A stretch of DNA of 64,000 nucleotides from an uncultured Hormoscilla sp. (GCA_963921275.4 OZ001293.3:1536001-1600000), one strand, 5' to 3'. Counted from the first letter of the stretch, positions 4,259 through 53,795 are shown. The notes: generated by a model from the sequence alone, not told the origin. Program-made: numbers and translations.

Positions 4259-6146
4259 GTGCGATTCGTTCTAGCCTAAGGTGGTCAAACACGGAACGCT
4301 AGTCTAGGAAACTAGAAACTCTAGTACTCATGGGGGTTAGATTCCCGTGCGATGAGTTCCAGCCTAACGTAGTCATATACGGAACGCTGGCCTAGGAAAC
4401 TAGGAACTCTGGTAATCATGGGGGTTTAATTCCCCCTCCCCAGGTACAGGGGTAACCGCGTGAGGTGCTGCGAAGTAACATCATCGTGGTGCCAAGCGAG
4501 GACTCAAATGTAGGATAACTGGCAGCCCAAGCCGGTGACTCTGCTAGGAAAGATGTCCATGGCTAGAACAAGCGAACCTATGTAAACCTCGTTAAACCCA
4601 ACCAGCGAAATAAGGCTTAATGCGCTGGAACAAAAGTTAATGCAGTTAGTGTTAATTAGGGAATTGGCTAACATTGTACCCAAATAACTGCCGGGGAAAA
4701 GTAGGGGCCTAAAGGCATCGTGAAATGATACCAGGGAACGAAGTAACCTCAGCGAGAGGAACGAAGTAACCCCCGTGGTGCTGTCCTCATTTGGACAAGT
4801 CAGATGTGCGTCCGCGTAGCGTGCGCGCAGCGCATAGCGCATGCCCATGAGGGGAGAGATGGCCCGAGAAGCTAATGCCTAGGCGGTGTCTGGAGCATGC
4901 CTTGGTGTCTGGAGCACACCGAGTCCTTCAGGACAAGAGTGTGCGGAAGACGCCAAAGTCCTTCAGGACAAGAGCATGCGGAAGACGCCGGTAATGCCTA
5001 TGGATACGCAGACGCGGGTCGGTGATACTAGTAAACTATTGGTACAAGTAGCTCTAAAATGTCATAAGCCCATTTACAGCGTTAGCGAAAGCGAGTTGAG
5101 GATTGAGGAATATTTAACTGGTAAAACGGAGTGTTAAATGGTGATACTAAAGGTTATCCGGCAGATCCACTCACCAACCAGGAAAGGGGCGGACGTGCAA
5201 GTAGTAAGGGACAATGGGAGTAATCCCTAGTAATCCTACCCGTGAAAGGGGCCTAGTACCCAGTAGCCGTGTGCGGTGAAAGTCGCATGCACGGTTCCGA
5301 AAGGGAGGGTTGTCCCGCGAGGGACAGCTCGACCCCGACTTCTCCCCAGGCGCGGGGGTAACACCGGTTGGAGGTGCTGCGGAGTAACATCGCCGTGGTG
5401 CTAAGCGAGGACTTAAATGTAGGATAGCTGATAGCCTAAATCGGCGACGCCGCGCTTGTTAGATGTCCAAGGTCAGAATAAGCGAATTCATGTAAACCTC
5501 GTTACTACGAACCAGCTCTAAGGCTTAATGCGCTGGCCCAAAAGGGTGAAGTAGTTAGTATTGGTTATGTCAACTGACCAATATCGTGCTCAAAGAACTA
5601 CCGGGGTAGAGTGAAGACCTAAAGACAGCATGAAATGATACTAGGGAACGAAGTAACCTCTCATGAGCTGTCCTCATATGGACAAGTTAGATGTAAAGCG
5701 GAAGCTATGAGGGGAGAGATGGCCCAAGAAGCAAAAGCCTGGGGTAATTCCTATGGATATGCTGACGTGGGTCGGTGATAGATAGAATCTTTGGGTGAAA
5801 GTAGCCTTAATGTTTTAGATCAGGAGAAATCCTAGATAATTAATGTTGGACTAAAGACCTGACCGGGTAAAACTTGGAGAACCTAGTAAATTAGGTAAAT
5901 GTTAGTAAAGAGCGGTTAATATGGGTTGGTACTGTTATCCCCCGCGAACCTTCCGGAGTTAGGCATATATGTAGTCTGAGACTAACCATAAGGGGTGAAA
6001 TTGCATGAAGAAAGGGACAAAGGGAGTAATCCTGAGTAATTCTACCTAGGACAAGGGCTATCTACCCAGTAGCCGTGTGCGGTGAAAGTCGCATGCACGG
6101 TTCCGAAAGGGAGGGTTGGGAGGCGACTCCTAGCTCGACCCCGACT
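4259..6146 (+). mobile_element. ORF-less group II intron (outer member of twintron; 894 nt without the inner intron)
   Basis: Starts GTGCG; D5 AGCCGTGTGCGGTGAAAGTCGCATGCACGGTT near 6071; D6 ends ACCCCGACT; EBS1 GTCAA (5569-5573) pairs with exon TTGAC. Confidence 0.93.
4347..5340 (+). mobile_element. ORF-less group II intron (inner member of twintron; 994 nt)
   Basis: Second GTGCG at 4347; own D5/D6 at about 5265-5340; EBS1 GGGAAT (4659-4664) complements upstream ATTCCC; removal restores ATTCCC|TCTCCCCAGG as in the 48-kb intron. Confidence 0.93.
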
Positions 6147-6557
6147 CCGGATATTGTGGTAAAAGATGGAGACGATCGTCCCATGATGTTTGTCGCTGTC
6201 GTAGCCTCGCAGGTATATAGATCTGAGAAATTGAAAGTTCATTACCTAGAGAATTATCAACAAGTACCTTTTCTGATGTTTGTCAATCTCACACAAGTGA
6301 GAATATATCAATCGGGAAATTATCATCCAGTCATGATATTAAATCCTGGAGAAATTTTTCCAGTTTACGACCCTGACTATCAAAACCATGAGGTTGTTTT
6401 TCAGGATTATTTAGTTGGATTAATGGATGCTTGGTTAAGTGATTTATCTTATCATTGGAAAAGCGAGCATCCTCCTTTTGAAACGCAAGTTAATGAAATC
6501 GGTTTGATTTCTCTGCTAGAAAATGGTTTTCTTGAGAGAATATTGGAGTGGGATTAA

Positions 6558-7160
6558 ATGTCGATATTTTTGTATATTGAAACAAATGGGATCGTGTCTT
6601 TGGCTCAAAAACGAAATCAAGCAATTGAGTCATTGCTGGAAAACTTACCTAATGATGTTCAGTTAATCTTACCCAGCATTTGCTACATGGAAGCGCTATT
6701 TGCTTTTCAACAAGATAAAAAACGGAGAGATATCTTTAAGCAATCTTTGGTTATTGAGATTAATGAAGCAAGACGAAGCAATTTGAACATTTCGCAATTG
6801 TTGATGAATGACTTAGAACAAAGTCAAGTGAAATATAATTTCCTCTCACAACAGTTAAATGATGAATTCATTGAGGCTTTGAGAATTTTGCAATCTCGTC
6901 TGACTTTGATCCATCCTCAACCGGATACGTTAATCAGAACTTTAGTCGCTCCAAATTTGAATAAATCGACAGAAAAGAGAGATGATTTTATTTTGCGGTG
7001 TATTTTAAGACTACGCTCAAAATTATTCGCACCTTAGGAAAACCTTTTTTAGTGAAAATACGAAACAGTTTGGACAGCAACCTGTTCGAGAGGCTTGTCG
7101 AGAAGTTGGCATTACTTATTTTGGGAATATAGAAAATTTGCAAGGTTGGTTGCGATCGTG
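6558..7160 (+). pseudogene. PIN-domain protein, frameshifted near the C-terminus (end approximate)
   Basis: YIETN, ICYMEAL and DDFIL motifs; extra A near 7009 relative to the paralog at 7766. Confidence 0.65.
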
Positions 7161-7303
7161 AGTAGCGTCCCTTGCAACCAATGCTTTACAATATCTAGTA
7201 ACCTTGCCTCCCGATCGCCAGTTCGCCAGGGCAAATGTAGCGTAAGATACATTTGCCAGAGGAAATCATGTATATCAAGTAAGAAGAGAGAGGAGATGAA
7301 TCA

Positions 7304-7765
7304 ATGCTGGACAATTTTATCGCCAAAAATATAGATTTTGACCCGGCGATCGTGGTCAAAGATAAAGACGATCGTCCCATGATGTTTGTCGATGTCAGAT
7401 CTTACCGGACATTTAGCTCTGAAGACTTGACAATCCATCACCTGGAAGATTATCAACAGGTGCTTTTTCTGATGTTTGTCAATCTCAAACAAATCAGAAA
7501 ACAAATCAGAATATATCGGTCTGGTAATTATCAGCCAATAACGATCTTAAAAATAGAAGATATTTTGTCATTTTATGCTTCTAATTATCAAGAATACGAA
7601 GTAATTTTTCAGCATTATTTGGTGAGCTTAGTAGATAGTTGGTTAAGTGACATATCTTATGATTGGAAAAGCCAAAATCATCATTTTGAAACGCAGATTA
7701 ATGAAGTCGGTTTAATTTCTCTGCTAGAAAAAGGTTTTGTTGAGAGAATATGGGAGTGGGATTAA
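7304..7765 (+). CDS. Hypothetical protein, intron-free paralog of the twintron host
   Basis: 153-aa ORF aligning with the spliced 4218-6557 product. Confidence 0.75.
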   Translation: MLDNFIAKNIDFDPAIVVKDKDDRPMMFVDVRSYRTFSSEDLTIHHLEDYQQVLFLMFVNLKQIRKQIRIYRSGNYQPITILKIEDILSFYASNYQEYEVIFQHYLVSLVDSWLSDISYDWKSQNHHFETQINEVGLISLLEKGFVERIWEWD

Positions 7766-8369
7766 ATGTCTGTTTTTTTGTATATTGAAACCAATGGAAT
7801 CATGTCTTTGGCTCAAAAGCGAAATCAAGCAATTGAGTCATTGCTATCAAACTTGCGAGCGGATGTTCAGTTAATCTTACCTAGCATTTGCTACATGGAA
7901 GCGCTATTTGCTTTTCAACAAGATAGAAAACGGAGAGATGAATTCGATCACTCTTTAACTATTGAGATTAATGAGCCGAAGCAATTTGAGCATTTCGCAA
8001 TTGGTGATGAATGGCTTAAAACAAATGGAAGAGAGATATGATTTACTCTCACAACAGTTATATACTGAATTAATTGATGCTTTGAGGGTTTTAGAATCTC
8101 GTTTGACTTTGATACATCCTCAACCTGATACCTTGCGCAGAACTTTGGAGCGTGCCAATTTGAAGAAATTGACAGAAAAGAGAGATGATTTTATTTTGCG
8201 CTGTATTTTAGACCAAGCTCAAAATAATTTTTCCGAAAGGAAAGCCTTTTTTAGTGAAAATACGAAACAGTTTGGACAGCAAACTGTTCGAGAGGCTTGT
8301 GGAGAAGTTGGGATTACTTATTTTGGCAATATAGAAAACTTACAAAGTTGGTTGCAATCTCTTCAGTGA
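7766..8369 (+). pseudogene. PIN-domain protein, frameshifted
   Basis: Split into ORFs 7766-8041 and 7962-8369; about 5 nt missing near 7975 relative to the first copy. Confidence 0.65.
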
Positions 8370-8409
8370 GAATAATGAGATAGGCGATGTCCACCTCATC
8401 AGCAGACCT

Positions 8410-10460
8410 TTAGTCATTGCGGGCATGCTCAAATTCGTACAGATAGAAGAGTCGGCTGAACTTTTGCAGTAGATATCCCACCACTGCTAAGAAGATGGCA
8501 ATTATAGTTGGCCACCAGAAACTAGCCGTGGGCGTAATTGCTAAGATAGAGTCTGATGTTGATATTTCACCCATAGTCGCCAGTATGGCGATCGCCCGGG
8601 CATCCAGCAATAGGCCCAGAACCAGAAATACACCAGCAGCAACATAGCTTAACAGAGCAAGGCGATTAATTTTGTTCAGGGCCTTCTGGCAGACCTGGCA
8701 ATGTTGGGTATGTGTCGTCCAGATATCAAACAACTGCTGCTTGTCCCGTTCCGCTGGCGGCAGGTCCGGGTTACATCCCTCAGCCCAGCCCATTTCACCT
8801 CCCGCTTTCAACTCCAGCCATTTACGGAAGGCAATTACCATCTTATCTTGAGGATTGGGAGTGTAGACTTTTTCCAACCATTTACCTTTTCCCTGCTTGG
8901 CCAGCAGCTTTTCTTGATAGTGGAGAAACACTAGTAGGTTGTCAAGGAATAATTGATGGGTAAAGCCGCTTAAGTTTGATGCGAGCATCTTCGGTGGTAA
9001 ATTGCCAGTCAATTCTGCTATATTGAGCATTTCTGCGCGATTCCCAAGCACTTACTTCTCGTTTCAAGCTCTCCATGTCGGGAATGCGACGGTCTAGACA
9101 CTGACGAGTTAAAACACTCAGTTCAATTTCTGCCATGTTGAGCCAACTACCATGTTTAGGGGTATAATGGATTTCTAACTTATCGAGAATCGGTTTGGCT
9201 TCAGCAGCAGGAAAAGTTGCATATAAAGCAGAGGGACTGTGGATGTTGAGGTTGTCATGAATGACTATAATTCGCTCAGCTAATGGATAGCAGACATCTA
9301 CTAAATATTTCATTTGATGAGAATAATCTTGTTTACTGCGACGCTCGGTAACTTCTACATGTCGCCATCCGCCCAAGGGTTCAGAGAACATGAAGATATT
9401 ACAAACGCCATTTCTTTCATATTCGTAGTCATAGCGTCGGGGTTGACCTGGTAAGGATGGAAGGGGAATTTTGGTTTCACTTACTAACTGCTTACTTGTC
9501 TCGTCAAAACAAACCACTGGATAATTTGGCTCGTAAGGACAAGTATAAAGGCTTAACACATCTTCCATATGGTAAACAAACTCGGCATTTTCTTTAGGTG
9601 GAATTACCCAACAGTCCTGTAACCAAGGCTTTAGTTCATTTTTTTTTAAGGTTTGACGCACGGTTTCATGAGAAATACTCTCGACATACCCTAACTCAAC
9701 CATGCGATCTGCCAACAGCCTCAATGTCCATGAACCTTGGCCTTCGGGAGGTTCTCCACAGGCCAGGGCAATTAAGTGAGCTTCTTGTTCCCCATCTAGT
9801 AAACGAGGTTTGGTACGAGTGGGCGATTGACGGGACAACGCCGCTAATAGACCTTCTTCTACAAAACGCTTAGCTTATCGTTCAATGGTCGAAACGCTGA
9901 TATCTAAAGCTTTATTAATCTCCAAGTCACTCCAACCACTTTGTCTGAGTTATCGGCATCTTCAAGTTCCTGCACCAGGCGCGGCCTTCTCAACTTACTT
10001 TCCCGCTGCCCTTGTATAATCTTCTGGCCAGATCCACAGCAAACCTTGACGTTCCTGGGTGGGATAAACCACTGCACTGGACTGCTGGTTGGCACAATGC
10101 TTCGCTTCAGTCTGCCGATCTTGAGATTGGGGAATTTTGACACATTTTCCCTCACGGTCAAACCGCCAAGCATGGTAGGCACACAACAGAGTCCCATCCG
10201 ACTCAACTCGACCTTCGGACAGAGGTGCAAGTCTGTGGGGACAATAATCTGCAAAGCAACGCCATTTCCCTTCCGCATCTCGCCATAAGACTAAGTCTAA
10301 CCCCAGTAACTGTATGGCATGAGGACGAGACGGGTCGAGGTAGTCTACAACTGCTACTGGATACCACTGTTTTGTCCACTCAAATATATCTGACTCTGCT
10401 GCTGGCAGCAGCTGGTGAAGATTCTCTTTCTTCTCTTCCAGAATGTTCTCCGCAGTTATC
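8410..10460 (-). pseudogene. Rieske 2Fe-2S / pheophorbide a oxygenase family protein, disrupted by IS630 with loss of its central part (start approximate)
   Basis: CPHRLAPLSEG...CAYHAW Rieske motif in 9995-10525; HTQHCQVC PaO C-terminus in 8410-8937. Confidence 0.85.
8934..9940 (-). mobile_element. IS630-family element, 5'-truncated, transposase with an internal stop
   Basis: VVCFDE, DNLNIH and WLNMAEIE motifs; end TTGACAACCTAC next to TA at 8932-8933; upstream frame ...TIER*AKRF. Confidence 0.88.
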
Positions 10461-10533
10461 TTACTCCTTCCTACATTAGTTAAATAGTGGGCGATGCCTA
10501 CATTCTCATGGTGGGCGATGCCCACCCTACGTT

Positions 10534-11067
10534 CTACTTTAAGTCAAGTAAGCCCTTTTCCTTGAGTTTGGGGTTAAAGCGAATTTCCTCTCGGACTCCA
10601 CGTTCGGCAAGTCCGGCTTTAATTTCCGCTTCCACCCGCCTCGATACATTTTTCAACAGTTTCATTTGCCCCAGTTCGTCACTCGCCGCATAACTGCTTT
10701 GTTCTTCATCTGTCATGGTGATTTTCGCATCAATAGGTTCAGTCCATTTGCCTGCCTCAGCACCATTCCCAGGTGGGGTAGTACCATTTTCCGCGATCCA
10801 AGCATCCCGGATATTTTCTAAGGTTGTCCGCTTGGGTCTGTCAATAGTTTGCACCTTCAACCAATAGCACCTCTGGGGTTGACGGACTAAATGTTGCTTC
10901 AAGCTGACAAAGACATCACGAGAATAGTTGACAAGTTGCAGATATTGCGCTTCATCAAAGATAGCGTAAATCCCAATTTTGCCTTGCAACTGCTGAGGCA
11001 AGTGACCAGTTTCGTCAAGATAGGGCAGATATGTTAGACTAGCGAGGGCTGGAATATTATTTGTCAT
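10534..11067 (-). CDS. GIY-YIG nuclease-like family protein
   Basis: GIYAIFD motif; resembles a conserved cyanobacterial family. Confidence 0.7.
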   Translation of the reverse strand: MTNNIPALASLTYLPYLDETGHLPQQLQGKIGIYAIFDEAQYLQLVNYSRDVFVSLKQHLVRQPQRCYWLKVQTIDRPKRTTLENIRDAWIAENGTTPPGNGAEAGKWTEPIDAKITMTDEEQSSYAASDELGQMKLLKNVSRRVEAEIKAGLAERGVREEIRFNPKLKEKGLLDLK

Positions 11068-11074
11068 GGCCTAG

Positions 11075-11383
11075 TTACTTAATTTTGCGGTAAATAGCAC
11101 AGAGGCGACTGGGTTTGAAGATTTTGGCTTTGAACATGAAGTTGGGCGGGACGTTAACGATCGCATGTTCTTGGGAGTCATGATACTTTTCAAACTCCGG
11201 GGCCATGCCTTTGGGTGTCCCGGCGCTGTAGGGTACGGGTTGAAACAGGAACTCCGTAAACTCTACGGGAACTCCATTGAGTTGTTGACTCACTTGGTTT
11301 AAGAAAGCTTCACTTTGGAGTAAGCTAAAGAGAGTGGCTTTAGCCTCCGGGTCCAGGGTAAAGCTGAAGAGCAAAATTTTCAA
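11075..11383 (-). CDS. Conserved hypothetical protein (start uncertain)
   Basis: 102-aa ORF co-oriented with and 7 nt from the GIY-YIG gene. Confidence 0.55.
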   Translation of the reverse strand: MKILLFSFTLDPEAKATLFSLLQSEAFLNQVSQQLNGVPVEFTEFLFQPVPYSAGTPKGMAPEFEKYHDSQEHAIVNVPPNFMFKAKIFKPSRLCAIYRKIK

Positions 11384-13806
11384 TGATTCTCAGAGACATT
11401 TACGGTATATGGGCGGCTGTAAGTACAGGTAGACAGGCGGATAAGCAATACCTCGCTGGGTCGATTGCTCAATCTTACCACAAGTGGTGTTGTCCAGAAA
11501 CCGGTAACTTCTGCGAAACCGGGTTTCTGATGATGAGGACGCGCACCAGTCGGCTCAAAGTAGGGGGAGGGGTGTCTGTCGTATTTGAAAAGACTGGCGC
11601 TGGCAAGAAGCAAGCCTATGCCCTCTGCACGGAAGCACCATCGGACGGCAGTCTCGCAAGCTGGCAGTGGTATCCTGCCAGTACAGAGTCCCAATCTACG
11701 GGTTTTTACCATGCTATCTATCCCCGCAGCTGGTATGTTTATGAAAATGTGTTGAGTGCGGCTCTGACTTGCGAGCAGTTTTCCCCGATAATACCGGGAA
11801 ATTACCAGGAAACCAGTTACCCAATTGCCATCTTTGAATGGACGGCCCACAACCCCACGGATACGCCCATTACTCTCAGTATTATGCTCACCTGGGAAAA
11901 TACGGTGGGTTGGTTTACCAATCAGCTGAAGTCGCCAGAGGTGACTGTAAGGGATGATGGCAGCCCAGTATATGATTATCAGCCCCGCTGGGGGGAAAGT
12001 ACGGATAATTACAATCGCTGGATCGAGAATAACTTTCGCGTCGGCTGTCTGATGAGTCGCTTGTCTACGACAAATATCCCCGTGGAAGGGGAAGGTCAAT
12101 GGGCGATCGCGACGGTGAGCAATCCAGCGGTAGAGGTATTCTATCATAGTCGCTGGAAGCCAGGGGGGACGGGAGCGCAAATCTGGGAACCCTTTGCCAC
12201 AACTGGGGAGTTGAGTGACTCGGAAGATGAAAGTCCGGCAGCTGCGGGGGAACGAATAGCTTGCGCGATCGCGGTGCGGTTTACGATTAGACCGGGACGG
12301 ACTCGGAAAATACCTTTTATTTTAGCCTGGGACTTCCCGGTGACGGAGTTTGGGGTGAAGACTCAGGACTTGGCCCGATCGGGAGAGATGCCTTCGACGC
12401 AAATTGGGACGCAGATCGGTTATTATCGTCGCTACACGGACTTCTTCGGGCGGAACGGCAAAAATGCCTGGTCCATGGTTCGCACGGCCCTGAAGCACTC
12501 GGACAGTTGGAAAGAACAGATCCAAGCATGGCAGAAACCGGTGCTAGAAAACTGCGATCTACCGAACTGGTTTAAAATGGCCTTGTTTAACGAACTGTAC
12601 CTGTTGACGGGGGGCGGAACTCTCTGGACTTCGGCGTCAGAAGATGACCCGGTAGGTCAGTTTGCAGTCTGGGAATCGGTAGATTATCGTTGGTATGAAA
12701 GCCTGGACGTGCGACTGTACGGTGCCTTTCCCTTGGTATACCTGTGGCCGAAACTGGAAAAAGCAGTGTTGCTGGCCTATGCCCGGGCCATTCCCACCTT
12801 CGATCGCAGGACTCGGGTCATTGGTTATAATCAAGTAAAAGCCGCGCGCAAAGTCATGGATGCGACTCCTCATGACTTAGGTGCGCCCAACGAACATCCC
12901 TGGGAGCAAACCAATTATACCAGTTATCAAGATTGCAATCAATGGAAAGATTTACCCTGTGATTTTGTCTTGCAAGTCTATCGAGAGTTTGTGCTGACAG
13001 GTAGCACGGATATAGAGTTTTTGCAAGAATGCTGGCCCGCTATTGTCGGAACTCTGAATTATTTGAAGACTTTTGATAAGGACGGGGATGGCATTCCGGA
13101 AAACTCAGGGGCACCAGACCAAACCTTTGATGACTGGCAACTGCAAGGTGTGAGTGCTTATTGTGGAGGGTTGTGGTTGGCGGCCCTGTCCGCAGCAGTG
13201 GCGATCGGGGAAATGGTAGGTGATGCTGCTACCATAGCTGAATATCAAACATGGCTAGAACAGGGGAAAGAAATCTATCAAGAGAAACTCTGGAATGGCG
13301 AATTTTACCAACTGGATAGTGAAAGCGGTTCGGATGTGGTCATGGCAGACCAGTTATGCGGTCAATTTTACGCCCAACTGCTGGGATTACCAGATATCGT
13401 ACTCCGATCGCGTGCCCAATCAGCTCTGAAAAAGATATACGAAGCATGTTTCGTGAAATTCAATCAGCAGCACTCCGAGAAACTGGGAGTAGCAAATGGC
13501 GTGCGATTGCGCTGCGCGCACGCTACGCGAACGGACGGCACTGCGTCAAACCCGGATGCAACTCATCCATTAGAAGTATGGACGGGAATAAACTTTGGAC
13601 TAGGGGCATTTATGCTACAAATGGGAATGAAAGAGGAAGCAATGACAATTGCCGAAGCAGTAGTAAGACAAATATACCAGAAGGGGTTACAATTTAGAAC
13701 GCCAGAAGCGATAACTGCGGCAGGGACATTTCGTGCGAGTCATTACTTGCGGGCAATGGCAATATGGGGGATGTACGTCGTGGGGCAGGCGTCTCGCCTG
13801 CCCTAG
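11383..13806 (+). CDS. GH116 family beta-glucosidase / glucosylceramidase; first ~65 aa atypical, possibly truncated
   Basis: YESLDVRLYG, DQTFDDW, DQLCGQ and FRTPEA motifs. Confidence 0.85.
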   Translation: MILRDIYGIWAAVSTGRQADKQYLAGSIAQSYHKWCCPETGNFCETGFLMMRTRTSRLKVGGGVSVVFEKTGAGKKQAYALCTEAPSDGSLASWQWYPASTESQSTGFYHAIYPRSWYVYENVLSAALTCEQFSPIIPGNYQETSYPIAIFEWTAHNPTDTPITLSIMLTWENTVGWFTNQLKSPEVTVRDDGSPVYDYQPRWGESTDNYNRWIENNFRVGCLMSRLSTTNIPVEGEGQWAIATVSNPAVEVFYHSRWKPGGTGAQIWEPFATTGELSDSEDESPAAAGERIACAIAVRFTIRPGRTRKIPFILAWDFPVTEFGVKTQDLARSGEMPSTQIGTQIGYYRRYTDFFGRNGKNAWSMVRTALKHSDSWKEQIQAWQKPVLENCDLPNWFKMALFNELYLLTGGGTLWTSASEDDPVGQFAVWESVDYRWYESLDVRLYGAFPLVYLWPKLEKAVLLAYARAIPTFDRRTRVIGYNQVKAARKVMDATPHDLGAPNEHPWEQTNYTSYQDCNQWKDLPCDFVLQVYREFVLTGSTDIEFLQECWPAIVGTLNYLKTFDKDGDGIPENSGAPDQTFDDWQLQGVSAYCGGLWLAALSAAVAIGEMVGDAATIAEYQTWLEQGKEIYQEKLWNGEFYQLDSESGSDVVMADQLCGQFYAQLLGLPDIVLRSRAQSALKKIYEACFVKFNQQHSEKLGVANGVRLRCAHATRTDGTASNPDATHPLEVWTGINFGLGAFMLQMGMKEEAMTIAEAVVRQIYQKGLQFRTPEAITAAGTFRASHYLRAMAIWGMYVVGQASRLP

Positions 13807-13819
13807 GGCGGGGGTCTCG

Positions 13820-15598: not shown

Positions 15599-17394
15599 AT
15601 GAGAAAAAGACGAAATTTGTGGTTATTTGTATTGAGTTTGGCATGCGTGCTGCTGATCCAAGTCCATGCGATCGCCAAAAAGCATGTGAATGCAGAAGTA
15701 GGGGTAAAGCAAGTAGCAAATCTAGAGGAAATAGAGAAAAAGGTAGAGGCCGTGCCCCCCGGGTTTTCGCCGTGCGTCCGGGGGGCACGGGAGGAAAGTG
15801 ATGAAGAAGGGCAGCTAAAACGATTTGAGGAAGTAGTCAAAGATGCCGAGAAGTTAGAGGGTTTATTCACAGTTTACCGCCAGGATAAAAAAGGTAAACT
15901 ATATCTAGAAATAAAGCCAGAACAGCTGGATAAAAACTACCTGGGGGTGATAACGCTATCCACAGGTATAGGGGAGGCCGGGATATTAAAGGGCATGCCG
16001 ATCAGGGAAATATTGTTTCAATTTCGTCGGTTACAGAACAAAGTGTAGTTTGTGGTTCCGAATATCAACTTTAGGGGGAGTGAAGACGATCGGGTGCAGC
16101 GAACGATCTCTCGATCGTTTAGCGACTCAGTGCTGTACAGCATAAAAATAGAAAGTATTCATCCAGAACGAAAGACATTGCTGATCGATCTGGGGAGTCT
16201 GATGCTAGGACAAAGAGACATAGGTAATTTGTCATCGGTAGTGAGAAAAATGTTAGGAAATAGACAGAAATAAATCCTATTTCGGCGAGGCCAAAGCCTT
16301 TCCATTAAATGTAGAGATAGAGTCAGTTTACGGGTTTAAGAGTGCGTCCGGTGCAGGTGCAGATATTCCCAGCTTGCCAGACAGTCGGGCCTTTAGCCTA
16401 TCAGTACATTATAGTCTGTCAGAACTGCCAGTCAATAACGGCTACCGTCCCCGGGTGGCGGACGAACGGGTGGGCTATTTTGTGACAGCATACAAGGACT
16501 TAGGCAACGATAACCGGAAAGATCCATTTGTGCGTTACATCAACCGCTGGCATCTGGAGAAAAAAGATCCATATTCGCCGCTGTCGCCGCCGAAACAGCC
16601 GATCGTATTTTGGATTGAAAATACGGTGCCAGATGAATACCGGGAGGCGATCGCTCGAGGCGTGCTAATGTGGAATCGGGCATTTGAAAAGGCAGGTTTC
16701 TCGAATGCGATCGAGGTGCGGCAGATGCCAGATGATGCTCAATGGAACCCGGAGGACGTGCGCTACAATACGATCCGCTGGACGACTGCCCTTTGAGGTG
16801 ATTCCGGTGCAGAAACAAAGGGAGGCATTGAGTGCTATTGCAGAGTACGTGTTTGCATCAGATGCCTTTCAATTTTCACCCCAACTGTTGAATCAGTTAG
16901 CACCGTCCCGCTGGTGGCACTGGGGAACAGTTCCCGCCGTGTTCCGACTGGATTATCCGATTAGCGATCGCCTGTTTTTCGTGCAACGGGTAGTGTTGCG
17001 ATCGCTCTTAGCGGCACCGCGTTTGAGCAGGATGCGAGACTTAGAATTGAAGGCAGCACCCGAAGAGGTCTTGATGCTGCCTGAATTATTTGATACATTG
17101 CAAAACAGTATTTGGACAGAAGTAGCGCAAAAGGACCAAGAGAATATTTCCAGTATCCGCAGATCCTTACAGCGAGAGTATGTAGAAATATTAAGTGCAA
17201 TGGTGCTCCGTAAATCCCGAGTTCCTGAAGATGCACGCACCCTGGCATGGTATCATTTAGGTCAACTGCGTTCGGACATCGACAAGACCTTGAGAAGAAG
17301 GGGCCGGAGTTTCGATACCTATACCAAGGCCCATTTGGCCAAAACCCGCGATCGCATTGACAAAACCTTGTCTGCCCCCCTACAATCCAATTAA
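15599..17394 (+). pseudogene. Secreted zinc metalloprotease (DUF5117/DUF4953-type), fragmented
   Basis: Signal peptide; RVADERVGYF, IVFWIENTVP and DVRYNTIRW motifs; stop at 16046-16048; no HEXXH segment across the ~16790 junction. Confidence 0.8.
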
Positions 17395-19489: not shown

Positions 19490-20432
19490 GTGCGAATCGT
19501 TTTGGCGTAAGTCTGAAATATGGCGATCGCCGGGCTGGTTAATACCAGCAACTCTGGTCATCATGGGGGTTCAATTCCCCTTCCCCCAGGTACGGGAGTG
19601 ACCGCGTGAGGTGCTGCGGAGTAACATTACCGTGGTGCCTCCCGAGGACAAATGTAGGATAAGGTCTCAGCCCAGAGACCGACGCCGCATGGCTGCGCCA
19701 CGCTGCGCGATCGGAAAGAGGCTCATGGTTAGAGCAAGCGAATCCCTGTAAGCATCGTCATCTTAAACAAGCGAAAAGAGGCTGACACGCTTGGTGCAAA
19801 ATGCGCACGCAGTCCGCGTATCAGTGGTTGCACGTCACTGATATCGTACCCGAAATGACTGCCGGTGTATAGGGGAGACCTAAAAGCCTCGTGAAATGAT
19901 ACCAGGGAACGTTCCGGACAAGAGCGGTGCTGTCCAGATGGACAAGTCAGATGTGCGTCCGCGTAGCGTGCGCGCAGCGCCTAGCGCATGCCCGCGTGGG
20001 GAGGGAGGTCCTAAGAAGCTAATGCCCGGGGTAATGCCTGTGGATATGCAGACGTAGGACGGATATGGTAAAAAGCTCTAGGAGATAGTAGCCCTCTAAA
20101 CGTGCTTAACCAGTGGCAACACTAGGTAGTAATGATGGACTGAAATCCTAACCGGGTAAAAAATTTAGAGGCCCCATACGGGCACCTGTTAGTAAAGAAC
20201 GGTCATAGTGGTTTTCTAGTTCTCCCCCGTAAACCTTCCGGAGTTAGGTACTCAACTAGTTCATGACTGACCATAAAGGGGCTATATTTCATAGGGCAAG
20301 GGACAACGGGAGTAATCCCTAGTAATCCTACCCGTGACAAGGGTTTACCAACCAGTAGCCGTGTGCGGTGAAAGTCGCTCTTCAGGTTCCGAATGGGAGG
20401 ATTGTCCCGCGAGGGACAGCTCGACCCCGACC
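19490..20432 (+). mobile_element. ORF-less group II intron (943 nt), D5 partly degenerate
   Basis: GTGCG start; D5 AGCCGTGTGCGGTGAAAGTCGCTCTTCAGGTT; ends ACCCCGACC; EBS1 TGCACG versus exon CGGGCA (5/6). Confidence 0.9.
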
Positions 20433-41117: not shown

Positions 41118-41217
41118 GATAATTCGGTTCCTTGCGAAACATCGATACTGACTATACCCGAATCGCGTATTGGGTAAGATATACTTGATTATAGCAGGTT
41201 AAGCCAGTAGTTGGGCT

Positions 41218-45565: not shown

Positions 45566-45829
45566 GCACCATCTGTCGGCAGTTAGTTCAGTTCCTCTTC
45601 TGTCATATCTTTAATGAAATTTTCAGCCAGTTTCCAGATTGATTGACCAACATTATCATTTTTGTTGTCATACTTGACTTATTTAAAATTTAGTCTGACA
45701 GCTTCTTTGAGCTTAATAAATATCAGGTCAATAGTATCAGCTTTAAATTCGCCTATGGCAAGTTCAGGATAATAGGCATTATAGCCAGATTCAGTCTTTT
45801 CCAGCTGTAATGCTGACTCTGTACGACAT
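45566..45829 (-). pseudogene. Degenerate copy of the HicB-like antitoxin at 40785-41117
   Basis: Shares CTCTGTACGACATGATAATTCGGTTCCTTGC-AAACATCGATACTGAC and coding similarity. Confidence 0.75.
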
Positions 45830-46138
45830 GATAATTCGGTTCCTTGCTAAACATCGATACTGACATTATAGCTGATCGGCTCGTGCCTTGACAAGGGATA
45901 CTGGTCAGTATCTAGACTTTTTTCAACTCGATATGGAACTGCGGCGAAACCCAACATCAACATAGTATGGTTGGGTTTCGTTCCTGATGCTGTTGGCGAA
46001 ATCCATCTCGAAAGACGAATAAGAGCGTGCTACAAGAACGAGAAATCTTTACTTGGACGATTAGTAATACTCAATGTAAGATGCTTGGTAGCACATTCGC
46101 CAATAGTATCCGTTCCTCAACCCAACCTACAAAAATTA

Positions 46139-46801: not shown

Positions 46802-46818
46802 TACTCTTTACTCCATTG

Positions 46819-48069
46819 CTAATAAATCATTGGTGGCGGTGCTTCCGGATCGGCTGCAAAAGCCAACCAGAGAGGAAATTGCAGCATGGACAGACTAACT
46901 TTATTTTCCGACTCATCCACGACAATGAGTGGTAGTTCCCCTTGCTTGTTCAAGCGCTCAGCTTTCACCGCCAAGGGTTCCGGTTCCTCAAACAGCACTA
47001 TACCCCCATCGGAACCAAAATCACTGCGAGAAATGCCCAGGCAATCTTGCAAACCCCGCCGCCATTCTCCCAGTCGTTCCGGCGAGTTTACCAAGATCAG
47101 ACTCCGCAGGTGATCGCCATACAGACTGCGCAACACCGAAATCACCGCCGAAGTAATCAGAATATTTTGCAAGCGACTCCCCATACTCTGCACTGCACCC
47201 TTGCCCCCTTGAGTAAAAAACCAATTCGATACACGTTCGGCATGAATTGGTTCAAAAGTGCGGCGCAACTGCCAAGCTGGACCATAGTAATCTGGTTGGG
47301 TGCAATATTGGTCCAAAATCCGGCGAATTTGCCTCCTTTGTTCCGTAAAACCCTGTGACGCAAACTGCGGACCCTCCGATGCTTCCTGACTGACTCTCCT
47401 GCCATCTGGCCGTACTGCTGGCGCTGTTTGAGGATATTCCGAGCGATCGCTCACCAATTGCAGCTGTTCTGCCGCGCTGGCCAACTCCTGTAAACTCCCC
47501 ACCAGATAGTCCTTAAACCCCTGAATTCTAATTGCCAGATCCTGGGATACCCCGGCAAAACTCGTGCGCATTTCCGATCGGATCCTCTCCGATCGCCTTT
47601 CCAACTGTTCTACATTAATTTGCAGCTTTTTCTTCCGTTGTTCTAACTCACTCACACCCTCTTGCACTAGCTTTCCCATCGCCGCTTGCGTAGATGCGAT
47701 CGCCTCTTGCCAGCGTTTCAATTCCGCTTCCTTAGCAGCTATCTGTTCTGTAAGTTCTCGTTCTTGCCGCTTTAAATCTGCTACTCGTTGCGCCAAACCA
47801 TCTACTTCATCCGACCTTGTCTCGTCAGATGCTTCTGCAGCAACTGCTGACTTTTCTGCTTCTAGGTTTTCGGACGCAGATGCTGGCACATCTGGAGATT
47901 CCACCTCTGTCTCTATCGTCGCTGCTTCTGGTGCTAACTCTTGTCCTTCACTATTGGGATCTCCCTCAGATGCTGAGTTTTCCTCTGCTGTCACTTGGTT
48001 ATTGTTTGCTTCCTCAACAGCTAAATTTTTATCTTCTTGTTCTGGGCTTGTGGTATGTTCTGAATTCAT
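46819..48069 (-). CDS. DUF3086 domain coiled-coil protein
   Basis: FAGVSQDLAIR and PDYYGPAWQLRR motifs; position upstream of plsY. Confidence 0.85.
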   Translation of the reverse strand: MNSEHTTSPEQEDKNLAVEEANNNQVTAEENSASEGDPNSEGQELAPEAATIETEVESPDVPASASENLEAEKSAVAAEASDETRSDEVDGLAQRVADLKRQERELTEQIAAKEAELKRWQEAIASTQAAMGKLVQEGVSELEQRKKKLQINVEQLERRSERIRSEMRTSFAGVSQDLAIRIQGFKDYLVGSLQELASAAEQLQLVSDRSEYPQTAPAVRPDGRRVSQEASEGPQFASQGFTEQRRQIRRILDQYCTQPDYYGPAWQLRRTFEPIHAERVSNWFFTQGGKGAVQSMGSRLQNILITSAVISVLRSLYGDHLRSLILVNSPERLGEWRRGLQDCLGISRSDFGSDGGIVLFEEPEPLAVKAERLNKQGELPLIVVDESENKVSLSMLQFPLWLAFAADPEAPPPMIY

Positions 48070-48137
48070 CTGGTAACTTGCGACTAACGACTATACTCCG
48101 AACGGTCATAAACTGCGCTTTTTGGGACAGTTAATAA

Positions 48138-48299
48138 TGTCATTGCGAGGGGAGGGAGATAATTGAGAGATCCTTGTGTTCCCTGAGTAACTCCCCCCGA
48201 AGCAATCTTCGGCAGTCCTGTTCTTTGGGAGATTGCTTCGGGGGGTCTTCCTGTTGTGCTGACCGCAGTTACTGCTGCCATAGCCCCCTCGCAATGACA
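48138..48299. repeat. REP/MITE-like element with nested inverted repeats
   Basis: TGTCATTGCGAGGGG ... CCCCTCGCAATGACA; inner CCCCCGAAGCAATCT / AGATTGCTTCGGGGG. Confidence 0.75.
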
Positions 48300-48378
48300 C
48301 CAACAATGCCTCTTTCGCGCAAGTCGATCCCTTTCAAAGTATAACAAATAATAGCATATCCTAAAATTACTCTCCGTT

Positions 48379-49243
<865 letters not shown>

Positions 49244-49252
49244 AATCCAATA

Positions 49253-49717
49253 CTATAACTCATTGATGCTTGACTTTAATGGATAGCGTTGTTCCAGACA
49301 AGTCCTCAGCATCTTGGGGTCAAACAGAATCGGCAAAAAGTGGATACTCTTGACCTCCTTAAAATAAAACAGGATGGGCACCGGATTCCAGAAAATCCGC
49401 CAGTTCTGCCAATCGCTGTAGGGAAAGCTTCGCAATTTAGTCGAGGTCAGGTAAACTTCCATTGCCTTGGGCGTGAATACCAGGCGGATCCTGGCCGTCT
49501 GAAACATTAAGAATAACCCCAACAGGGCGATCGGCAAGCTCAACCATACTTGTACCAATGCCAGGGCCGGGGCAGCAACTACCAACACCAAAGGCAGCTT
49601 ATAGCTAGGAGTTAGTTCAATTGTCTCAGTTGATTCAATAGTAGCAGTAGTAGTCACGGGCTTAATTCCTTTCTTTATTTCTCTAGCGGCTGGGCTGGGG
49701 CGGCTGGGCTGGCCCAT
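49253..49717 (-). CDS. DUF3119 family protein (true start probably near 49657)
   Basis: LFYFKEVKSIHFLPILFD motif. Confidence 0.85.
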   Translation of the reverse strand: MGQPSRPSPAAREIKKGIKPVTTTATIESTETIELTPSYKLPLVLVVAAPALALVQVWLSLPIALLGLFLMFQTARIRLVFTPKAMEVYLTSTKLRSFPYSDWQNWRIFWNPVPILFYFKEVKSIHFLPILFDPKMLRTCLEQRYPLKSSINEL

Positions 49718-49732
49718 AGGGATGGGTTAAGT

Positions 49733-50500
49733 TCAGACATTTCCCAGGGAAGAGGAGCCCAGTCCTTGAAAGAGCAACCAGGAAAGAAAGAAGTTAGCAA
49801 TAAAGATCGCCAACATCGCAGTTACCACAGCCGTTGTGGTAGATTGTCCCACACCCTTGGCTCCACCAGTGGTAGTCAAGCCCCAGCTGCAACCGATCAC
49901 TGCCAGTAAGGCACCGAAGACAACAGCTTTAATCATCGCACTGACAATATCCCAAGGCTGTAGGAAATTACGGACAGAATCTAGAAATAGGGACGAGACG
50001 ATTCTAAAATTAGCGCTTGCCACCAGCAGTCCCCCCGCCAGACCTGTAATCAAGGATAGAATCGTCAACAGCGGCAGCATCAGGCAACATGCTATCACCC
50101 GGGGGATGACTAAGTAATCAACCGGGTCGGTTTTCAGCATATAGAGGGCGTCGATCTGTTCGGTTACCTGCATGGTACCGATTTCCGCCGCAAAGGCCGA
50201 ACCGACCCGGCCCGCTAACACCACTGCTGTGAGTACCGGTGCTAGTTCTCGGGCTAAGGCCAGGGCCAGAACCCCGCCCACCGCCGCCGTCGCGCCAAAG
50301 TTGATAAATTCTCGTGCTACCTGAATGGTAAACACCATGCCCACAGAGCCCATCGTCATCAGAGTGATCGACAAGCTCGCCGGACCTACCAATGCCATTT
50401 GTTCCAGGGTGTTGCGGCGGTTAATCTTACCGGCAAATATATGCACTAGCACTTGTCCTGCCAATAAAACCGCCGCTAGTAACCGCTTACCCCATGCCAT
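49733..50500 (-). CDS. MlaE family lipid ABC transporter permease
   Basis: RELAPVLTA, AEIGTMQVTEQIDAL and GAKGVG motifs. Confidence 0.92.
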   Translation of the reverse strand: MAWGKRLLAAVLLAGQVLVHIFAGKINRRNTLEQMALVGPASLSITLMTMGSVGMVFTIQVAREFINFGATAAVGGVLALALARELAPVLTAVVLAGRVGSAFAAEIGTMQVTEQIDALYMLKTDPVDYLVIPRVIACCLMLPLLTILSLITGLAGGLLVASANFRIVSSLFLDSVRNFLQPWDIVSAMIKAVVFGALLAVIGCSWGLTTTGGAKGVGQSTTTAVVTAMLAIFIANFFLSWLLFQGLGSSSLGNV

Positions 50501-50810
50501 AAGCTACAACTCCATTTTCCCGCTCGGCTCGATCGGCTGTTTGGGCTCGATCGCCTTGGTCTATCATAGCGCTCTTATTTACGTTCTGTAATATTCTATC
50601 ATTTTTTACTCATTAGCAAAAATATCCTTATTTTGACTCTCAAGGTAAAAATATTAAAATTTTGCTACATATCTTCACAAAGATTTGGTAAGTAAAATTT
50701 AAGATTTATAAACTCTCGGTAATGGTATGGCATTGAGGCGTATGGTAGAGAAACGGGTGCAGCAAGTGACCTGCATCCAGAATAGTCAATTTAACTGGAG
50801 TAACATAGAA

Positions 50811-51104
50811 ATGAGCAGCTTGCCGGTTTTTATCCGCTCCCTGCTGTTGACAACTGTCCTCAGTTTTGTCGCCCCCCTGGTGTTAATTAGTGGCATAATG
50901 GTAAGTATATTCCTGAGTGGTTATCTGCCGGGCATGGCAGGAATCTCTCAAGCGGGGGCAACAATAGTCTGGAATTTTTTGGCGACCTTCGGCAGTGGAT
51001 GTCCCATGGAAGGACTGGTGACGATCGGTCTGGCCTGTAGTTTTGTGGGAGCCTTGTTTGATACCTACGCTTTCTATCGCAATCAAATCCTCCATGGCAA
51101 TTAA
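50811..51104 (+). CDS. Small hypothetical membrane protein
   Basis: SFVAP...FLATFGSG...VGALFDTY; ATG at 50811. Confidence 0.65.
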   Translation: MSSLPVFIRSLLLTTVLSFVAPLVLISGIMVSIFLSGYLPGMAGISQAGATIVWNFLATFGSGCPMEGLVTIGLACSFVGALFDTYAFYRNQILHGN

Positions 51105-51619
51105 CGTGGCACCAAATAGGGTATTGGCCATGATATTTGGGGTCGAGTTGGCCCCAAATTTGTGCTCCGATCCTAGAGTGAGGAGTAATTCTTATGGGAG
51201 ATAAAAAGAGCAGACCTGTGTTGAGATTGAGATCGTGGTGGTCCTTGCTAGCGCTCGTCATGTTGTTGGCTTGGGGAACTCTCCCCACAACGACGAGCAC
51301 CCGGTTACCGTTCGGCCTGGGATTGCAAAATTCGACAGATCCAACAGCCGATCGCATCGGCCAGGATCTGGAACGAATAGAAAAGCAAGTCCGAGAATTC
51401 ACTCTGGACAATGGGTTAAAATTCATTGTCATGGAACGCCATCAAGCGCCAATTATATCATTCATTACCTATGTAAATGTCGGGTGTGTGAATGAACCAG
51501 TTGGGAAAACGAGGGTGGCTCACTATTTAGATCATTTAGCTTTCAAAGGTACTACTCGCATCGGCACCAAATATTACGCAGCCGAAAAACCTCTACTAAT
51601 TAAACTGGATCGATTATTC

Positions 51620-53795
51620 GTTGGTGTCTTTAGTTTTTCGCCACCTTTGAGCGGTTGTGTAAGGCATGATCTCGTTGGACGACAAGGAAGAATAACGTCA
51701 GATAGCTGTGCTCATTCGGGAAAGCTCCTATTTCATCAGACTTCCTGGGAAACTTTCCAAGCGTTCGAGTAAGTTAGAGGTTCTCATCCTACAATGTAAC
51801 TCAGGCGCCAATTGGTAGAAAGTCAAGGTCAACTCAAGAGCTCTCTGGAACCTTTGCACTGCCTTATATTCCAGAACTTCCCACTTCAGGAAAAACGCTG
51901 CCAAGCGCTGTTGTGCTTCCTGTGAGCGAGGGCGCAGCGTAAAGAGCATAAGCATCATTTTGAAGAGGATAACGACGCTGTTGTTTGGCTTGGGAGTGAG
52001 TTAGCTGTTGTCCCATCTCATCATGTTCGGGGAGTTGTTGATAGCTCAGATCGTCTTGGAGCCGTCCCACAAGGTGGGTGATGCATCGCTGTTGCTTGGC
52101 CTTGGGCAGATGTTTGGTCATGGCAGCAGGCAAACCTAAAGTCCCATCACTCACAACTACTTCAACAATTTCTGCTTGCAGACCCCATGCCATTAAGTTT
52201 TATATGAAGTTTTCCCAGGCCAGGATGTCAAGACAGTTGGGCAATTTCGTAATGTATAAGTTGGTAGCTGCCATCTGGCCAGACAGCCATCGCCGCCAAA
52301 ATTACACGCTCTTGAGCTTGCCCCATCTGGCGGAGATGTCCTGCAGGGTCTACTTTGGATGGGGTCGAGCCGGGAATCGCTTCCCGACCCTCCCTTGAGG
52401 AACCGGACTTGCGATTTTCACCGCATCCGGCTACTGGGTACTAGGCCCTTTTCATAGGTAGACTTAATAGGAATTACTTCCGTTAGCCCTTGCCGCCTGT
52501 CTTTTCTTCCCTTTCCTGGTTTAGCGAGTGGTTGTTCTGATAACCGTTAGTATCACCATTTTCAAGTCAGTTTTACCAGTTATCCATACCTTATCCTCCA
52601 CTTGCGTTTCGGATTAGTTCCGTGGCTTTTTAGGATTACTCATTCCAGCAGCTTCCTAGTATCACCGACCCACGTCAGCGCTGGCTACCCAGCATCATCT
52701 ACATTACTGTAGATGTTATCCCAGGAATTACCCCGGGCATTCGCTTCTTGGGCCATCCCTCCCCCCGTGGCTTGCGCTTAACATCTAACTTGTCCTGATG
52801 GACAGCACACGAGAGGTTACTTCGTTCCCTAACAACATTTCGCGATACCTTTAGGTCCACACTATACCCCGGGAGCTATTTGAGTACTATATTAGCCAGA
52901 GTCTAAAACTAATACTAGCTACCATTTCCTTTTTAGGCCAGCGCATATAGCCTTATTTCGCTGGTTCCTTATAACGAGGCTTGCACATGTTTGCCTGCTC
53001 TAACCTTGGATATCTTTCCTAGCGGCGTCACCGGCTTAGGCTGCCAGTTATCCTACATTTGAGTCCTCGCTTAGCACCACGATGATGTCGCTTCGTAGCA
53101 CCGAGGACCGGTGTCACCCCCGTACCTGGGGGGAGGGGAATTTAACCCCCATGCGGTCAGAGTTCCCGGCTAATGAAACCGGGCTAGCGTTCCGTGTTTG
53201 ACCACGTTAGGCTAGAACGAATCGCACAAACTCTTCAAGGGTATATTGGATGTCCACCCAGACCCCATCTACAATCAAGATGGGGGGCGTCTTCTCAATC
53301 ACCGATTGACGATGTTTATCCATTTGCTGTTGAGCTTGTAAAGTAATAGGATTGATGGCACTCACAGATAGGACACTGCCCAGAAGAGGATAAAGTGCCT
53401 CTTGCAAGTCCCTGAAGGATAAACCCATCACATACAGACATAACCCCAAGTGAGCGAGATTCTACCTAGTAACCACAGCTTATGTGCGAGCATCACAAAT
53501 TTATTAAATTGACGCCGCAACTTTTTTCAATCGAGGACATTTAGGCATTCTGAGAACAACATTTTCACTCCTAGGGCGAGAAACCGTGATTCTTTCGTAG
53601 AAAGTTGCACCGAAGCGTTAAATTGATATACTGCTGTGGGAGAGCCCTCACTGCAGGCTATCGGGCCAAATCGCCAGAACCATTGAACCATAAGGGTTGA
53701 GCACCAGAATAGCCATTTTTCGATGTGTAATTTAAATGCGCGACAGCTTACTCCCATTAACAAAGGTAAGGTGGCGAAGAATTCCAGACACCAAT
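51620..53795 (-). mobile_element. IS256-like element (~1.3 kb without its intron), degraded
   Basis: 8-bp duplication GATTATTC (51612-51619, 53796-53803); imperfect IRs TTGGTGTCT...TTCGCCACCTT; LIVDG, VVSDG and QRCITH motifs. Confidence 0.85.
52357..53227 (-). mobile_element. ORF-less group II intron (871 nt) inside the IS256-like transposase gene
   Basis: GTGCG start; D5 AGCCGGATGCGGTGAAAATCGCAAGTCCGGTT; ends ACCCCATCC; EBS1 AGACTC pairs GAGTTT; splicing gives YTLEEF|KVDPAGH in frame. Confidence 0.92.

Follow-up and report, generated by a model that had tools for sequence, protein, structure and literature searches.

The 64-kb window analyzed here (OZ001293.3:1536001-1600000) is one stretch of genome, and the copy count and the absence of a reverse transcriptase (RT) given below refer to this stretch. 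It belongs to a cyanobacterium with a genome of the filamentous type, as indicated for the former by 50 HIP1 octamers (GCGATCGC) and a PipX gene; DUF3086 and DUF3119 genes and arrays of Uma2 genes are also present. The window contains exactly five homologous group II introns without an open reading frame (ORF), with lengths of 865-994 nt, which we call A to E. Intron A interrupts a small gene of no known family, B lies within A, C is in an ORF with a TPS domain, D is intergenic, and E is in the transposase gene of an insertion sequence (IS). All five are in the sense orientation with respect to the flanking genes, as a first-pass annotation of the window had stated. We consider it probable that the five introns are diverged members of one ORF-less family of group IIB, retargeted via their exon-binding sites (EBS) and dependent on an RT/maturase acting in trans. 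The nesting of B in A, the position of E inside an IS transposase, and the EBS3 segments come in addition to what that annotation contained.

The five introns had been recognized by a GTGCG start, a domain 5 (D5) with an AGC triad and a GAAA loop, and a domain 6 (D6). The GTGCG start and the AGC...GAAA of D5 occur in 5/5 copies, D6 is seen in all of them, and the D5 of C is degenerate. A D5 motif derived from the initial Rfam matches has five occurrences in the window and none in 100 shuffles. With the Rfam D5-D6 model (RF00029), four of the five copies reach the gathering score (44.4-48 bits for a cut-off of 40); copy C, with its D5 site at 20.3 kb, reaches 20 bits, the 3' strand of D5 being degenerate, and is probably defective. 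A hidden Markov model (HMM) of the family gives six segments in the window at E ≤ 1 and none beyond, which correspond to four full copies and to copy A in two pieces (model positions 1-91 and 92-925). The pairwise identity between the five copies is 62-74%. Near-identical copies within one specificity family, the mark of a recent proliferation, were not found among the five window copies, which have five specificities.

In all copies, three segments are complementary to the exons in a fixed register. EBS1 consists of six nucleotides in a hairpin loop, facing exon positions -1 to -6 (the intron-binding site IBS1); EBS2 consists of five nucleotides following CUCGUNA, in an internal loop, facing positions -9 to -13 (IBS2); and EBS3 is a single nucleotide in domain 1 that pairs with exon position +1 (IBS3). 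EBS1 and EBS2 occupy the same alignment columns in every copy. The EBS1/IBS1 and EBS2/IBS2 pairings listed by the first-pass annotation are all present, together with the weak pairing it noted in the 19-kb and 48-kb copies (C and D): out of 11 positions in EBS1 and EBS2, 10 pair in A, 11 in B, 8 in C, 8 in D, and 11 in E. When two relatives from Hormoscilla (loci L008 and L047) are added to the five window copies, cognate pairing with EBS3 included is observed at 76 of 84 positions (69 of 77 without EBS3). Non-cognate combinations of introns and exons pair on average at 4.8 positions out of 12, with a maximum of 8, and only one of 5040 permuted assignments, the true one, attains 76; in these seven copies, the pairings thus go beyond permuted ones. 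If the two relatives are held out and the register is set by the window copies, L008 pairs at 11/11 and L047 at 10/11 positions of EBS1 and EBS2. Among all 127,972 window positions, sites scoring at least 11/12 number 2 for A, 10 for B, and 21 for E. A better EBS2 register was sought for C and D, and the best found by hand has three out of five pairs. Judged by these pairings, the case for retargeting is solid for A, B, E, L008, and L047, and weak for C and D. The same mixture is described in section 10 of PMC2882425 for Thermosynechococcus elongatus, where poorly matched, mostly intergenic copies are read as rare retrotranspositions.

With 3' boundaries placed at ...CCCCGAC, where the Rfam alignment ends, the testable host genes are all one base out of frame; a boundary at GAC also adds a T relative to the paralogue of the host gene of A. 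A 5' boundary shifted one base upstream is ruled out because the covariation of gamma and EBS3 puts the extra base at the 3' end. Five independent lines place the true 3' splice site one base after ...GAC. In an alignment of 925 columns (the five window copies with L008 and L047), a single column, 472 (A, A, G, A, G, G, G), is Watson-Crick complementary in 7/7 sequences to the base that follows GAC (U, U, C, U, C, C, C). This column is in the joiner that links domains 2 and 3 (J2/3, AGAGAU/AGGGAU) and behaves as expected for a gamma-gamma' pair, which makes the base after GAC the last base of the intron. The sole other column pairing in 7/7 does so with the next base, exon +1: column 361 (G, A, U, U, U, U, U versus C, U, A, A, A, A, A), which lies in domain 1 immediately 3' of the hairpin with EBS1 and behaves as expected for EBS3. 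An RT-bearing intron of Coleofasciculus (L009), outside the scan, fits both gamma (G, with a terminal C) and EBS3 (A, with T at +1).

The exons themselves define the junctions. A paralogue 1 kb downstream of A reads TTTGAC/CCGG without interruption, and the exons of A give TTTGAC followed by CCGG only with the corrected boundary. The joined exons of E align without gaps with 7/7 uninterrupted Mutator-family transposases examined (...YTLE(E/G)F, junction, KVD...), drawn from the 120 listed of 608 homologues at E ≤ 1e-5; reading on from either of the two alternative 3' sites gives stops or a nonsense sequence. For C, the corrected site gives a TPS-domain ORF of 479 codons, and a site one base upstream gives a stop at 367. 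In L047, the intron follows codon 5 of psaJ, and its 3' exon covers positions 6-37 of the 37 of the PsaJ profile (E = 5.6e-19). The 3' terminal forms of the family are ...GAC-U, GAC-C, GGC-U, or AUC-C. In cyanobacterial RT-bearing relatives, for which the 3' ends are inferred, the number of bases after the D6 helix is equal (e.g., CCCCUAAC in L009), and this 3'-end geometry looks like a feature of the class.

Introns A and B form a twintron and are not two neighbors. B is inserted in domain 1 of A, so that the ATTCCC of its 5' exon is itself domain 1 of an intron. The flanking sequence of A pairs with EBS1, EBS2, and EBS3 of B at 12/12 positions, all Watson-Crick; after removal of B, the two segments of A are contiguous in the family alignment, and the domain 1 hairpin and spacer of the other copies are restored in A. 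As target, B has a hairpin close to the 5' end of domain 1, with GGGUU, two further bases, AUUCCC, and U; it is kept in all family members. In D, this hairpin is an empty target and constitutes, besides the occupied one in A, the only 12/12 site for B among the 127,972 positions. The equivalent hairpins in B itself, C, and E match at 11/12, with IBS3 alone missed. Since B cuts domain 1 of A, A would fold only once B is gone, and sequential splicing with the inner intron first is predicted. Inner-first splicing is reported with experimental evidence for the twintron of Trichodesmium, where the inner intron is also in domain 1 of an IIB2 host (PMC4649490).

The consensus fold of the seven copies (RNAalifold) comprises 222 pairs, and 108 of these show compensatory changes. 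When only the five window copies are used to predict the structure and the two Hormoscilla copies serve to score it, 385 of 474 cells (81%) are canonical versus 34-44% when the 3' partner is slid by 1-3 columns, and double, compensatory changes occur in 96 cells versus 16-30 in these slid controls. The fold of intron E is more stable than those of 20/20 shuffles (z = -2.9). In D6, both the consensus fold and the Rfam alignment leave the A of CUCG-A-CCCC, with eight bases after it, unpaired; this A is the candidate branch point. In domain 1, there is a motif pair CAUGG...CCUAAA, which we take to resemble a GAAA-tetraloop receptor. The Rfam comparison suggested with the first-pass annotation as a check of the group II fold holds for D5-D6, with RF00029 in four of five copies, and not for domains 1 to 4 (D1-D4), the models of which give no match at E ≤ 1 over the whole window; in a local search the best is RF01999, with 22 bits versus a gathering score of 36. 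The 5' start is GUGCGAUUC in A, D, and E, GUGCGAUGA in B, and GUGCGAAUC in C. By the criteria used in PMC4649490, the family belongs with group IIB and resembles the chloroplast-like IIB2 type, a likeness taken from the 5' GUGCGAUUC start, the EBS3-IBS3 pair, and the gamma-gamma' pair at the last base only.

No protein of the RVT family is present in the 86 ORFs of the window, including ORFs inside the introns (146 ORFs of at least 80 amino acids minus 60 overlapping longer ones). When the window is searched in six frames by tblastn with the RTs of three cyanobacterial introns, neither an RT nor a remnant appears (best E 0.29), as had been noted for RT genes by eye. An intron-encoded RT/maturase ORF in domain 4, the mark of an autonomous retroelement, was not found in the five introns. 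The same tblastn search on three loci of Hormoscilla metagenome-assembled genomes (L008, L047, and L093) has a best E of 0.52. These loci come from a scan of genome contigs with the D5 pattern, which is generic and matches at least 103 loci in many phyla; among the matches listed, which do not include the window's own genome, only these three share the remaining ribozyme (D1-D4). All three are ORF-less; their identity is 56-62% with the window copies and 70% among themselves. The one in L047 (2836-3893, minus strand) interrupts psaJ, the gene of photosystem I subunit IX; the joined exons encode a PsaJ of 41 amino acids, which argues that this relative must splice in vivo. The Coleofasciculus intron L009 is a distant relative, with the common GUGCGAUUCG start and a D1-D3 match to the family HMM (nhmmer, E = 1.3e-18). 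Its ORF of 595 amino acids is a group II RT/maturase (TIGR04416, 333.6 bits versus 300) with an HNH-like tail, and the nearest solved structure is 6me0_C (E = 3e-101). A blastn search of intron E in distant mode against a plasmid collection gave no match, and no paper combining Hormoscilla and "group II intron" was found in the literature searched. In two Microcoleus loci (L022, around 3001-3100, and L052, around 45-145), D5 is directly followed by GTGCGGTTCGTTTCTA..., which looks like a group II intron 5' end; another such intron may be inserted there between D5 and D6, forming a twintron of a different kind.

TABLE 1. Positions of the introns, their elements and exons, and related sites in the window, with exon pairing of each copy
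Feature	Position	Strand	Remarks
Intron A (outer of twintron), 5' segment	4259-4346	+	88 nt; GTGCG start and first part of domain 1; HMM 1-91
Intron A, 3' segment	5341-6146	+	HMM 92-925 (match at 5341-6145); RF00029 48 bits; A total 894 nt
Intron A, EBS and gamma	EBS2 5505-5509; EBS1 5569-5574; EBS3 5609; gamma 5717	+	CTACG; GTCAAC; G; A
Intron A, D5 and candidate branch A	6071-6104; 6138	+	
Intron B (inner of twintron)	4347-5340	+	994 nt; RF00029 47.9 bits; HMM match full length
Intron B, EBS and gamma	EBS2 4595-4599; EBS1 4659-4664; EBS3 4699; gamma 4857	+	AACCC; GGGAAT; A; A
Intron B, D5 and candidate branch A	5265-5298; 5332	+	
Intron C	19490-20432	+	943 nt; RF00029 20 bits
Intron C, EBS and gamma	EBS2 19761-19765; EBS1 19829-19834; EBS3 19870; gamma 20004	+	TCTTA; TGCACG; T; G
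Intron C, D5	20357-20390	+	degenerate
Intron D	49243-48379	-	865 nt; RF00029 45.7 bits; intergenic
Intron D, EBS and gamma	EBS2 48981-48977; EBS1 48915-48910; EBS3 48875; gamma 48762	-	ACATA; AGTTCG; T; A
Intron D, D5 and candidate branch A	48454-48421; 48387	-	
Intron E	53227-52357	-	871 nt; RF00029 44.4 bits; in transposase gene
Intron E, EBS and gamma	EBS2 52971-52967; EBS1 52904-52899; EBS3 52864; gamma 52758	-	TAAGG; AGACTC; T; G
Intron E, D5 and candidate branch A	52432-52399; 52365	-	
Predicted junctions	4258/6147 (A); 4346/5341 (B); 19489/20433 (C); 49244/48378 (D); 53228/52356 (E)		
Exon pairing, A			EBS1 5/6, EBS2 5/5, EBS3 1/1 (11/12)
Exon pairing, B			EBS1 6/6, EBS2 5/5, EBS3 1/1 (12/12, all Watson-Crick)
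Exon pairing, C			EBS1 5/6, EBS2 3/5, EBS3 1/1 (9/12)
Exon pairing, D			EBS1 6/6 (three G-U), EBS2 2/5, EBS3 1/1 (9/12)
Exon pairing, E			EBS1 6/6, EBS2 5/5, EBS3 1/1 (12/12)
Exon pairing, L008			EBS1 6/6, EBS2 5/5, EBS3 1/1
Exon pairing, L047			EBS1 5/6, EBS2 5/5, EBS3 1/1
Empty B target in domain 1 of intron D (GGGTTAAATTCCC/T)	49165-49153	-	12/12, all Watson-Crick
5' exon of A's host	4218-4258	+	IBS2 TGTAG 4246-4250; IBS1 TTTGAC 4253-4258
3' exon of A's host (no Pfam family)	6147-6557	+	followed by PIN_12 gene 6558-7037
Uninterrupted paralogous site of A's insertion point (TATAGATTTTGAC/CCGG)	7330-7346	+	paralogue gene 7304-7765
5' exon of E's host, transposase fragment	53228-53449	-	IBS2 CCTTG; IBS1 GAGTTT; Pfam Transposase_mut

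Some variable regions of the introns show further differences. In B (4806-4846) and in C (19953-19993), domain 2 has a palindromic, GC-rich insert (about 41 nt, GTGCGTCCGCGTAGCGTGCGCGCAGCGC...) in place of its tip. A third copy, with two mismatches in 28, occurs at 13509-13536 (minus strand) inside a GH116 gene region, and the insert may be a small dispersed repeat. In B, at about 4884-4990, a local tandem duplication, with GGTGTCTGGAGCA... and GTCCTTCAGGACAAGAG..GCGGAAGACGCC each present twice, is in the region aligned with domain 3 and does not occur in the other copies. The Hormoscilla copies share with A and C a longer form of the end of domain 3 and domain 4 (alignment columns 561-790), and B, D, and E have a shorter one. 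This grouping is unlike the similarities in domain 1 or D5-D6 and hints at recombination between copies.

The host loci are of several kinds. Intron A is located 13 codons into its host gene, which is paired with a PIN_12 gene, and the protein of the 5' exon matches the N-terminus of the downstream paralogue. Compared with this paralogue, one base is lost in the A-run at 4241-4245 and the frame is shifted, so that the host gene of A looks broken, or else the loss is a homopolymer sequencing error. The region comprises two tandem paralogous pairs (4218-4258 with 6147-7037, and 7304-8369), each encoding an unknown protein of about 150 amino acids and, after it, a PIN_12 protein, the gene of which is divided between two ORFs in the second pair. 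The host of C, once the exons are joined, is a TPS-domain ORF of the haemagglutinin type. The DUF3119 gene (49253-49717, minus strand) has its stop codon 9 nt before the start of intron D, and the DUF3086 gene lies downstream of the intron. The host of E, a Mutator-family (IS256-type) transposase, lacks the first 113 codons in frame and has an early stop; the IS that bears E appears to sit inside a peptidase M16 gene. Apparently broken genes are found at 51194-51772, 53846-55066, and 15599-17394, among them the peptidase M16 gene seemingly split by that IS. DUF5118, DUF5117, and Met-zincin domains are in separate ORFs, and the window as a whole looks rich in pseudogenes. The Uma2-family genes (putative restriction endonucleases) form tandem arrays of three copies at 3-1896 and of six at 55063-60360, with an alternation of 274- to 295-amino-acid forms in the six-copy array.

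In the reading that we favor, each intron would be transcribed within its host transcript and its exons recognized by the three fixed-register pairings with EBS1, EBS2, and EBS3. The last intron base would pair with gamma in J2/3, and the bulged A of D6 would attack. Intron B, aimed at the conserved domain 1 hairpin of its own family and inserted in A, would have to leave first in order to restore domain 1 of A. The different sites would have been reached through changes in the EBS segments, and the family would also have entered another mobile element, the IS with its transposase interrupted by E. For splicing, as for past mobility, the RT/maturase would act in trans and come from a related intron with an ORF at another place in the genome. 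This last step follows the experiments reported for T. elongatus (PMC2882425) and the statement, in the review PMC4424553, that bacterial ORF-less introns nearly always share their genome with related introns encoding an intron-encoded protein (IEP).

Several observations weigh against this reading. C and D pair with their own exons at 9/12 positions, and a score of at least 9 is reached by 1,228 (C) and 920 (D) of the 127,972 positions (about 1%). With 62-74% identity and no near-identical pair, nothing shows recent movement; the D5 of C is degenerate, and the perfect 12/12 target of B in D is unoccupied. The host gene of A is frameshifted and the IS hosting E is truncated, which makes selection for splicing doubtful at both loci. 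The 3' ends are C-Y, not the canonical A-Y, in 5/5 window copies and in both Hormoscilla copies, and 5'GUGYG...AY3' is given as the rule for the great majority of group II introns (PMC4424553). The 7/7 agreement of the EBS3 and gamma columns is partly by construction, as these columns were picked by a scan for complementarity, and L009 is the sole independent check. The step involving an IEP in trans is drawn by analogy from precedent only. Of the earlier view of a non-autonomous family spreading by retargeting, we retain the diverged EBS, each matching its own site, and drop the present tense of "spreading", which the divergence, the broken D5 of C, the weak pairing of C and D, and the empty site in D do not support. 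At least copy C, perhaps others as well, would now be decaying relics rather than active introns.

The same observations can be carried further, with all five introns being immobile relics, i.e., old vertically inherited insertions in which the EBS/IBS pairs record ancient homing, some of them kept by selection for splicing, and on which no RT acts now. We hold this to be unlikely, although the differences of 26-38% between copies with no near-identical pair, the empty perfect target in D, the degenerate D5 of C, the eroded exon pairing of C and D, and the non-functional or non-coding appearance of three out of four host loci all go in that direction, and IEP-less introns are stated to exist as splicing-only elements (PMC4424553). 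On the other hand, A, B, and E keep pairings at 11-12/12 and intact D5 and D6 in hosts that are pseudogenes or another intron, where weak selection for splicing is expected. In addition, four specificities and a self-family target imply repeated retargeting and insertion by elements that were already ORF-less, unless the ORF was lost five times, and no ORF remnant is present in any copy.

Very improbable, in our view, is a self-sufficient ribozyme that splices without a maturase and has spread without a dedicated group II RT, first by reverse splicing into RNA or DNA and then through copying or recombination by the host. The lack of an RT or remnant in the window and in the three Hormoscilla loci would fit, as would C.te.I1, an independent ORF-less bacterial intron reported to self-splice in an IEP-less genome (PMC4424553). 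However, the sequence examined comprises only the 64 kb and about 12 kb of relatives, bacterial ORF-less introns are, in that same review, nearly always accompanied by related IEP-encoding introns in the genome, and an RT-bearing relative of the same ribozyme type is found in another cyanobacterium (L009). As for the twintron, the bare arrangement of three adjacent homologous segments, and nothing more, could suggest that the 88-nt piece 4259-4346 is a truncated fragment, followed by a full intron and then by a 5'-truncated third copy. We give this practically no credit, because the 88-nt piece ends at HMM position 91 and the downstream piece begins at 92, the junction matches EBS1, EBS2, and EBS3 of B at 12/12 Watson-Crick positions, and the removal of B restores the domain 1 hairpin and spacer of the other copies.

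For the family of retargeted ORF-less introns that we favor, the T. elongatus TeI3/TeI4 introns, which the first-pass annotation had aptly cited as a precedent, are the closest known system (Mohr, Ghanem & Lambowitz 2010, PMC2882425). There, a cyanobacterial family of related IIB introns, mostly ORF-less, is described, in which ORF-containing members mobilize the ORF-less ones. Divergence of EBS1, EBS2, and EBS3 has produced families that differ in target, some copies are at poorly matched, mostly intergenic sites, and there are twintrons, including an ORF-less intron in an ORF-less intron (TeI3i in TeI3h), as well as an insertion in an IS. By that account, the T. elongatus introns are of type IIB1, closely related, and identical within some families, whereas the window copies have an IIB2-like 5' end and are 62-74% identical. 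The inner intron is located in the domain 4 ORF in T. elongatus and in domain 1 in the window, and the IEP source, known in T. elongatus, was not found in the window.

The Trichodesmium erythraeum twintron (Pfreundt & Hess 2015, PMC4649490) also has an IIB2 host intron, with a 5' GUGCGAUUC, a stem-less EBS2, and an EBS3, as here. The same paper reports that 10 of the 17 spliced introns of T. erythraeum are without an ORF and are thought to depend on maturases in trans. As described there, the two introns of the Trichodesmium twintron each have an IEP ORF and are of different subclasses, whereas both introns of the window twintron are ORF-less and of one family, and the inner one, unlike that of Trichodesmium, targets a hairpin conserved in its own relatives. 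In plant mitochondria, a "Hypermobile group II intron invading itself" (PMC7049729) shows, as here, a family member inserted into a copy of its own family, in that case in an organelle. C.te.I1 of Clostridium tetani is ORF-less and bacterial like the window family; it is described in PMC4424553 as a single copy with an altered 5' splice site and without EBS2, and not as a retargeted multi-copy family. EBS target families, ORF-less copies served in trans, twintrons, and insertion in an IS are therefore already in print for cyanobacteria (PMC2882425, PMC4649490). The window differs from the published cases by the IIB2-like 5' consensus, the much greater divergence among copies, the inner intron aimed at domain 1 of its own family, and the C-Y 3' end.

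A bolder proposal, which we regard as quite unlikely, is that of an old RT-less IIB2 lineage without an ORF remnant, either self-sufficient or non-autonomous in the manner of a short interspersed nuclear element (SINE), present in two or more lineages of filamentous cyanobacteria (Hormoscilla and that of the window) and still evolving its EBS1, EBS2, and EBS3 specificities, including that for the hairpin of its own family, with a C-Y 3' end. If this were true, and if the genome were without a related IEP, it would represent a multi-copy, retargeting family of group II ribozymes moving without a reverse transcriptase of its own. Multi-copy families that diversify their targets are the model for a possible multiplication of group II introns and for their coming to depend on a shared splicing machinery. 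The general picture of how such families work is unchanged by the window. To this picture it adds a second ribozyme subclass, IIB2-like, with retargeting, nesting in a relative, and landing in an IS, and it offers exact splice junctions, a clean natural set of EBS/IBS pairs, and a consistent C-Y 3' end.

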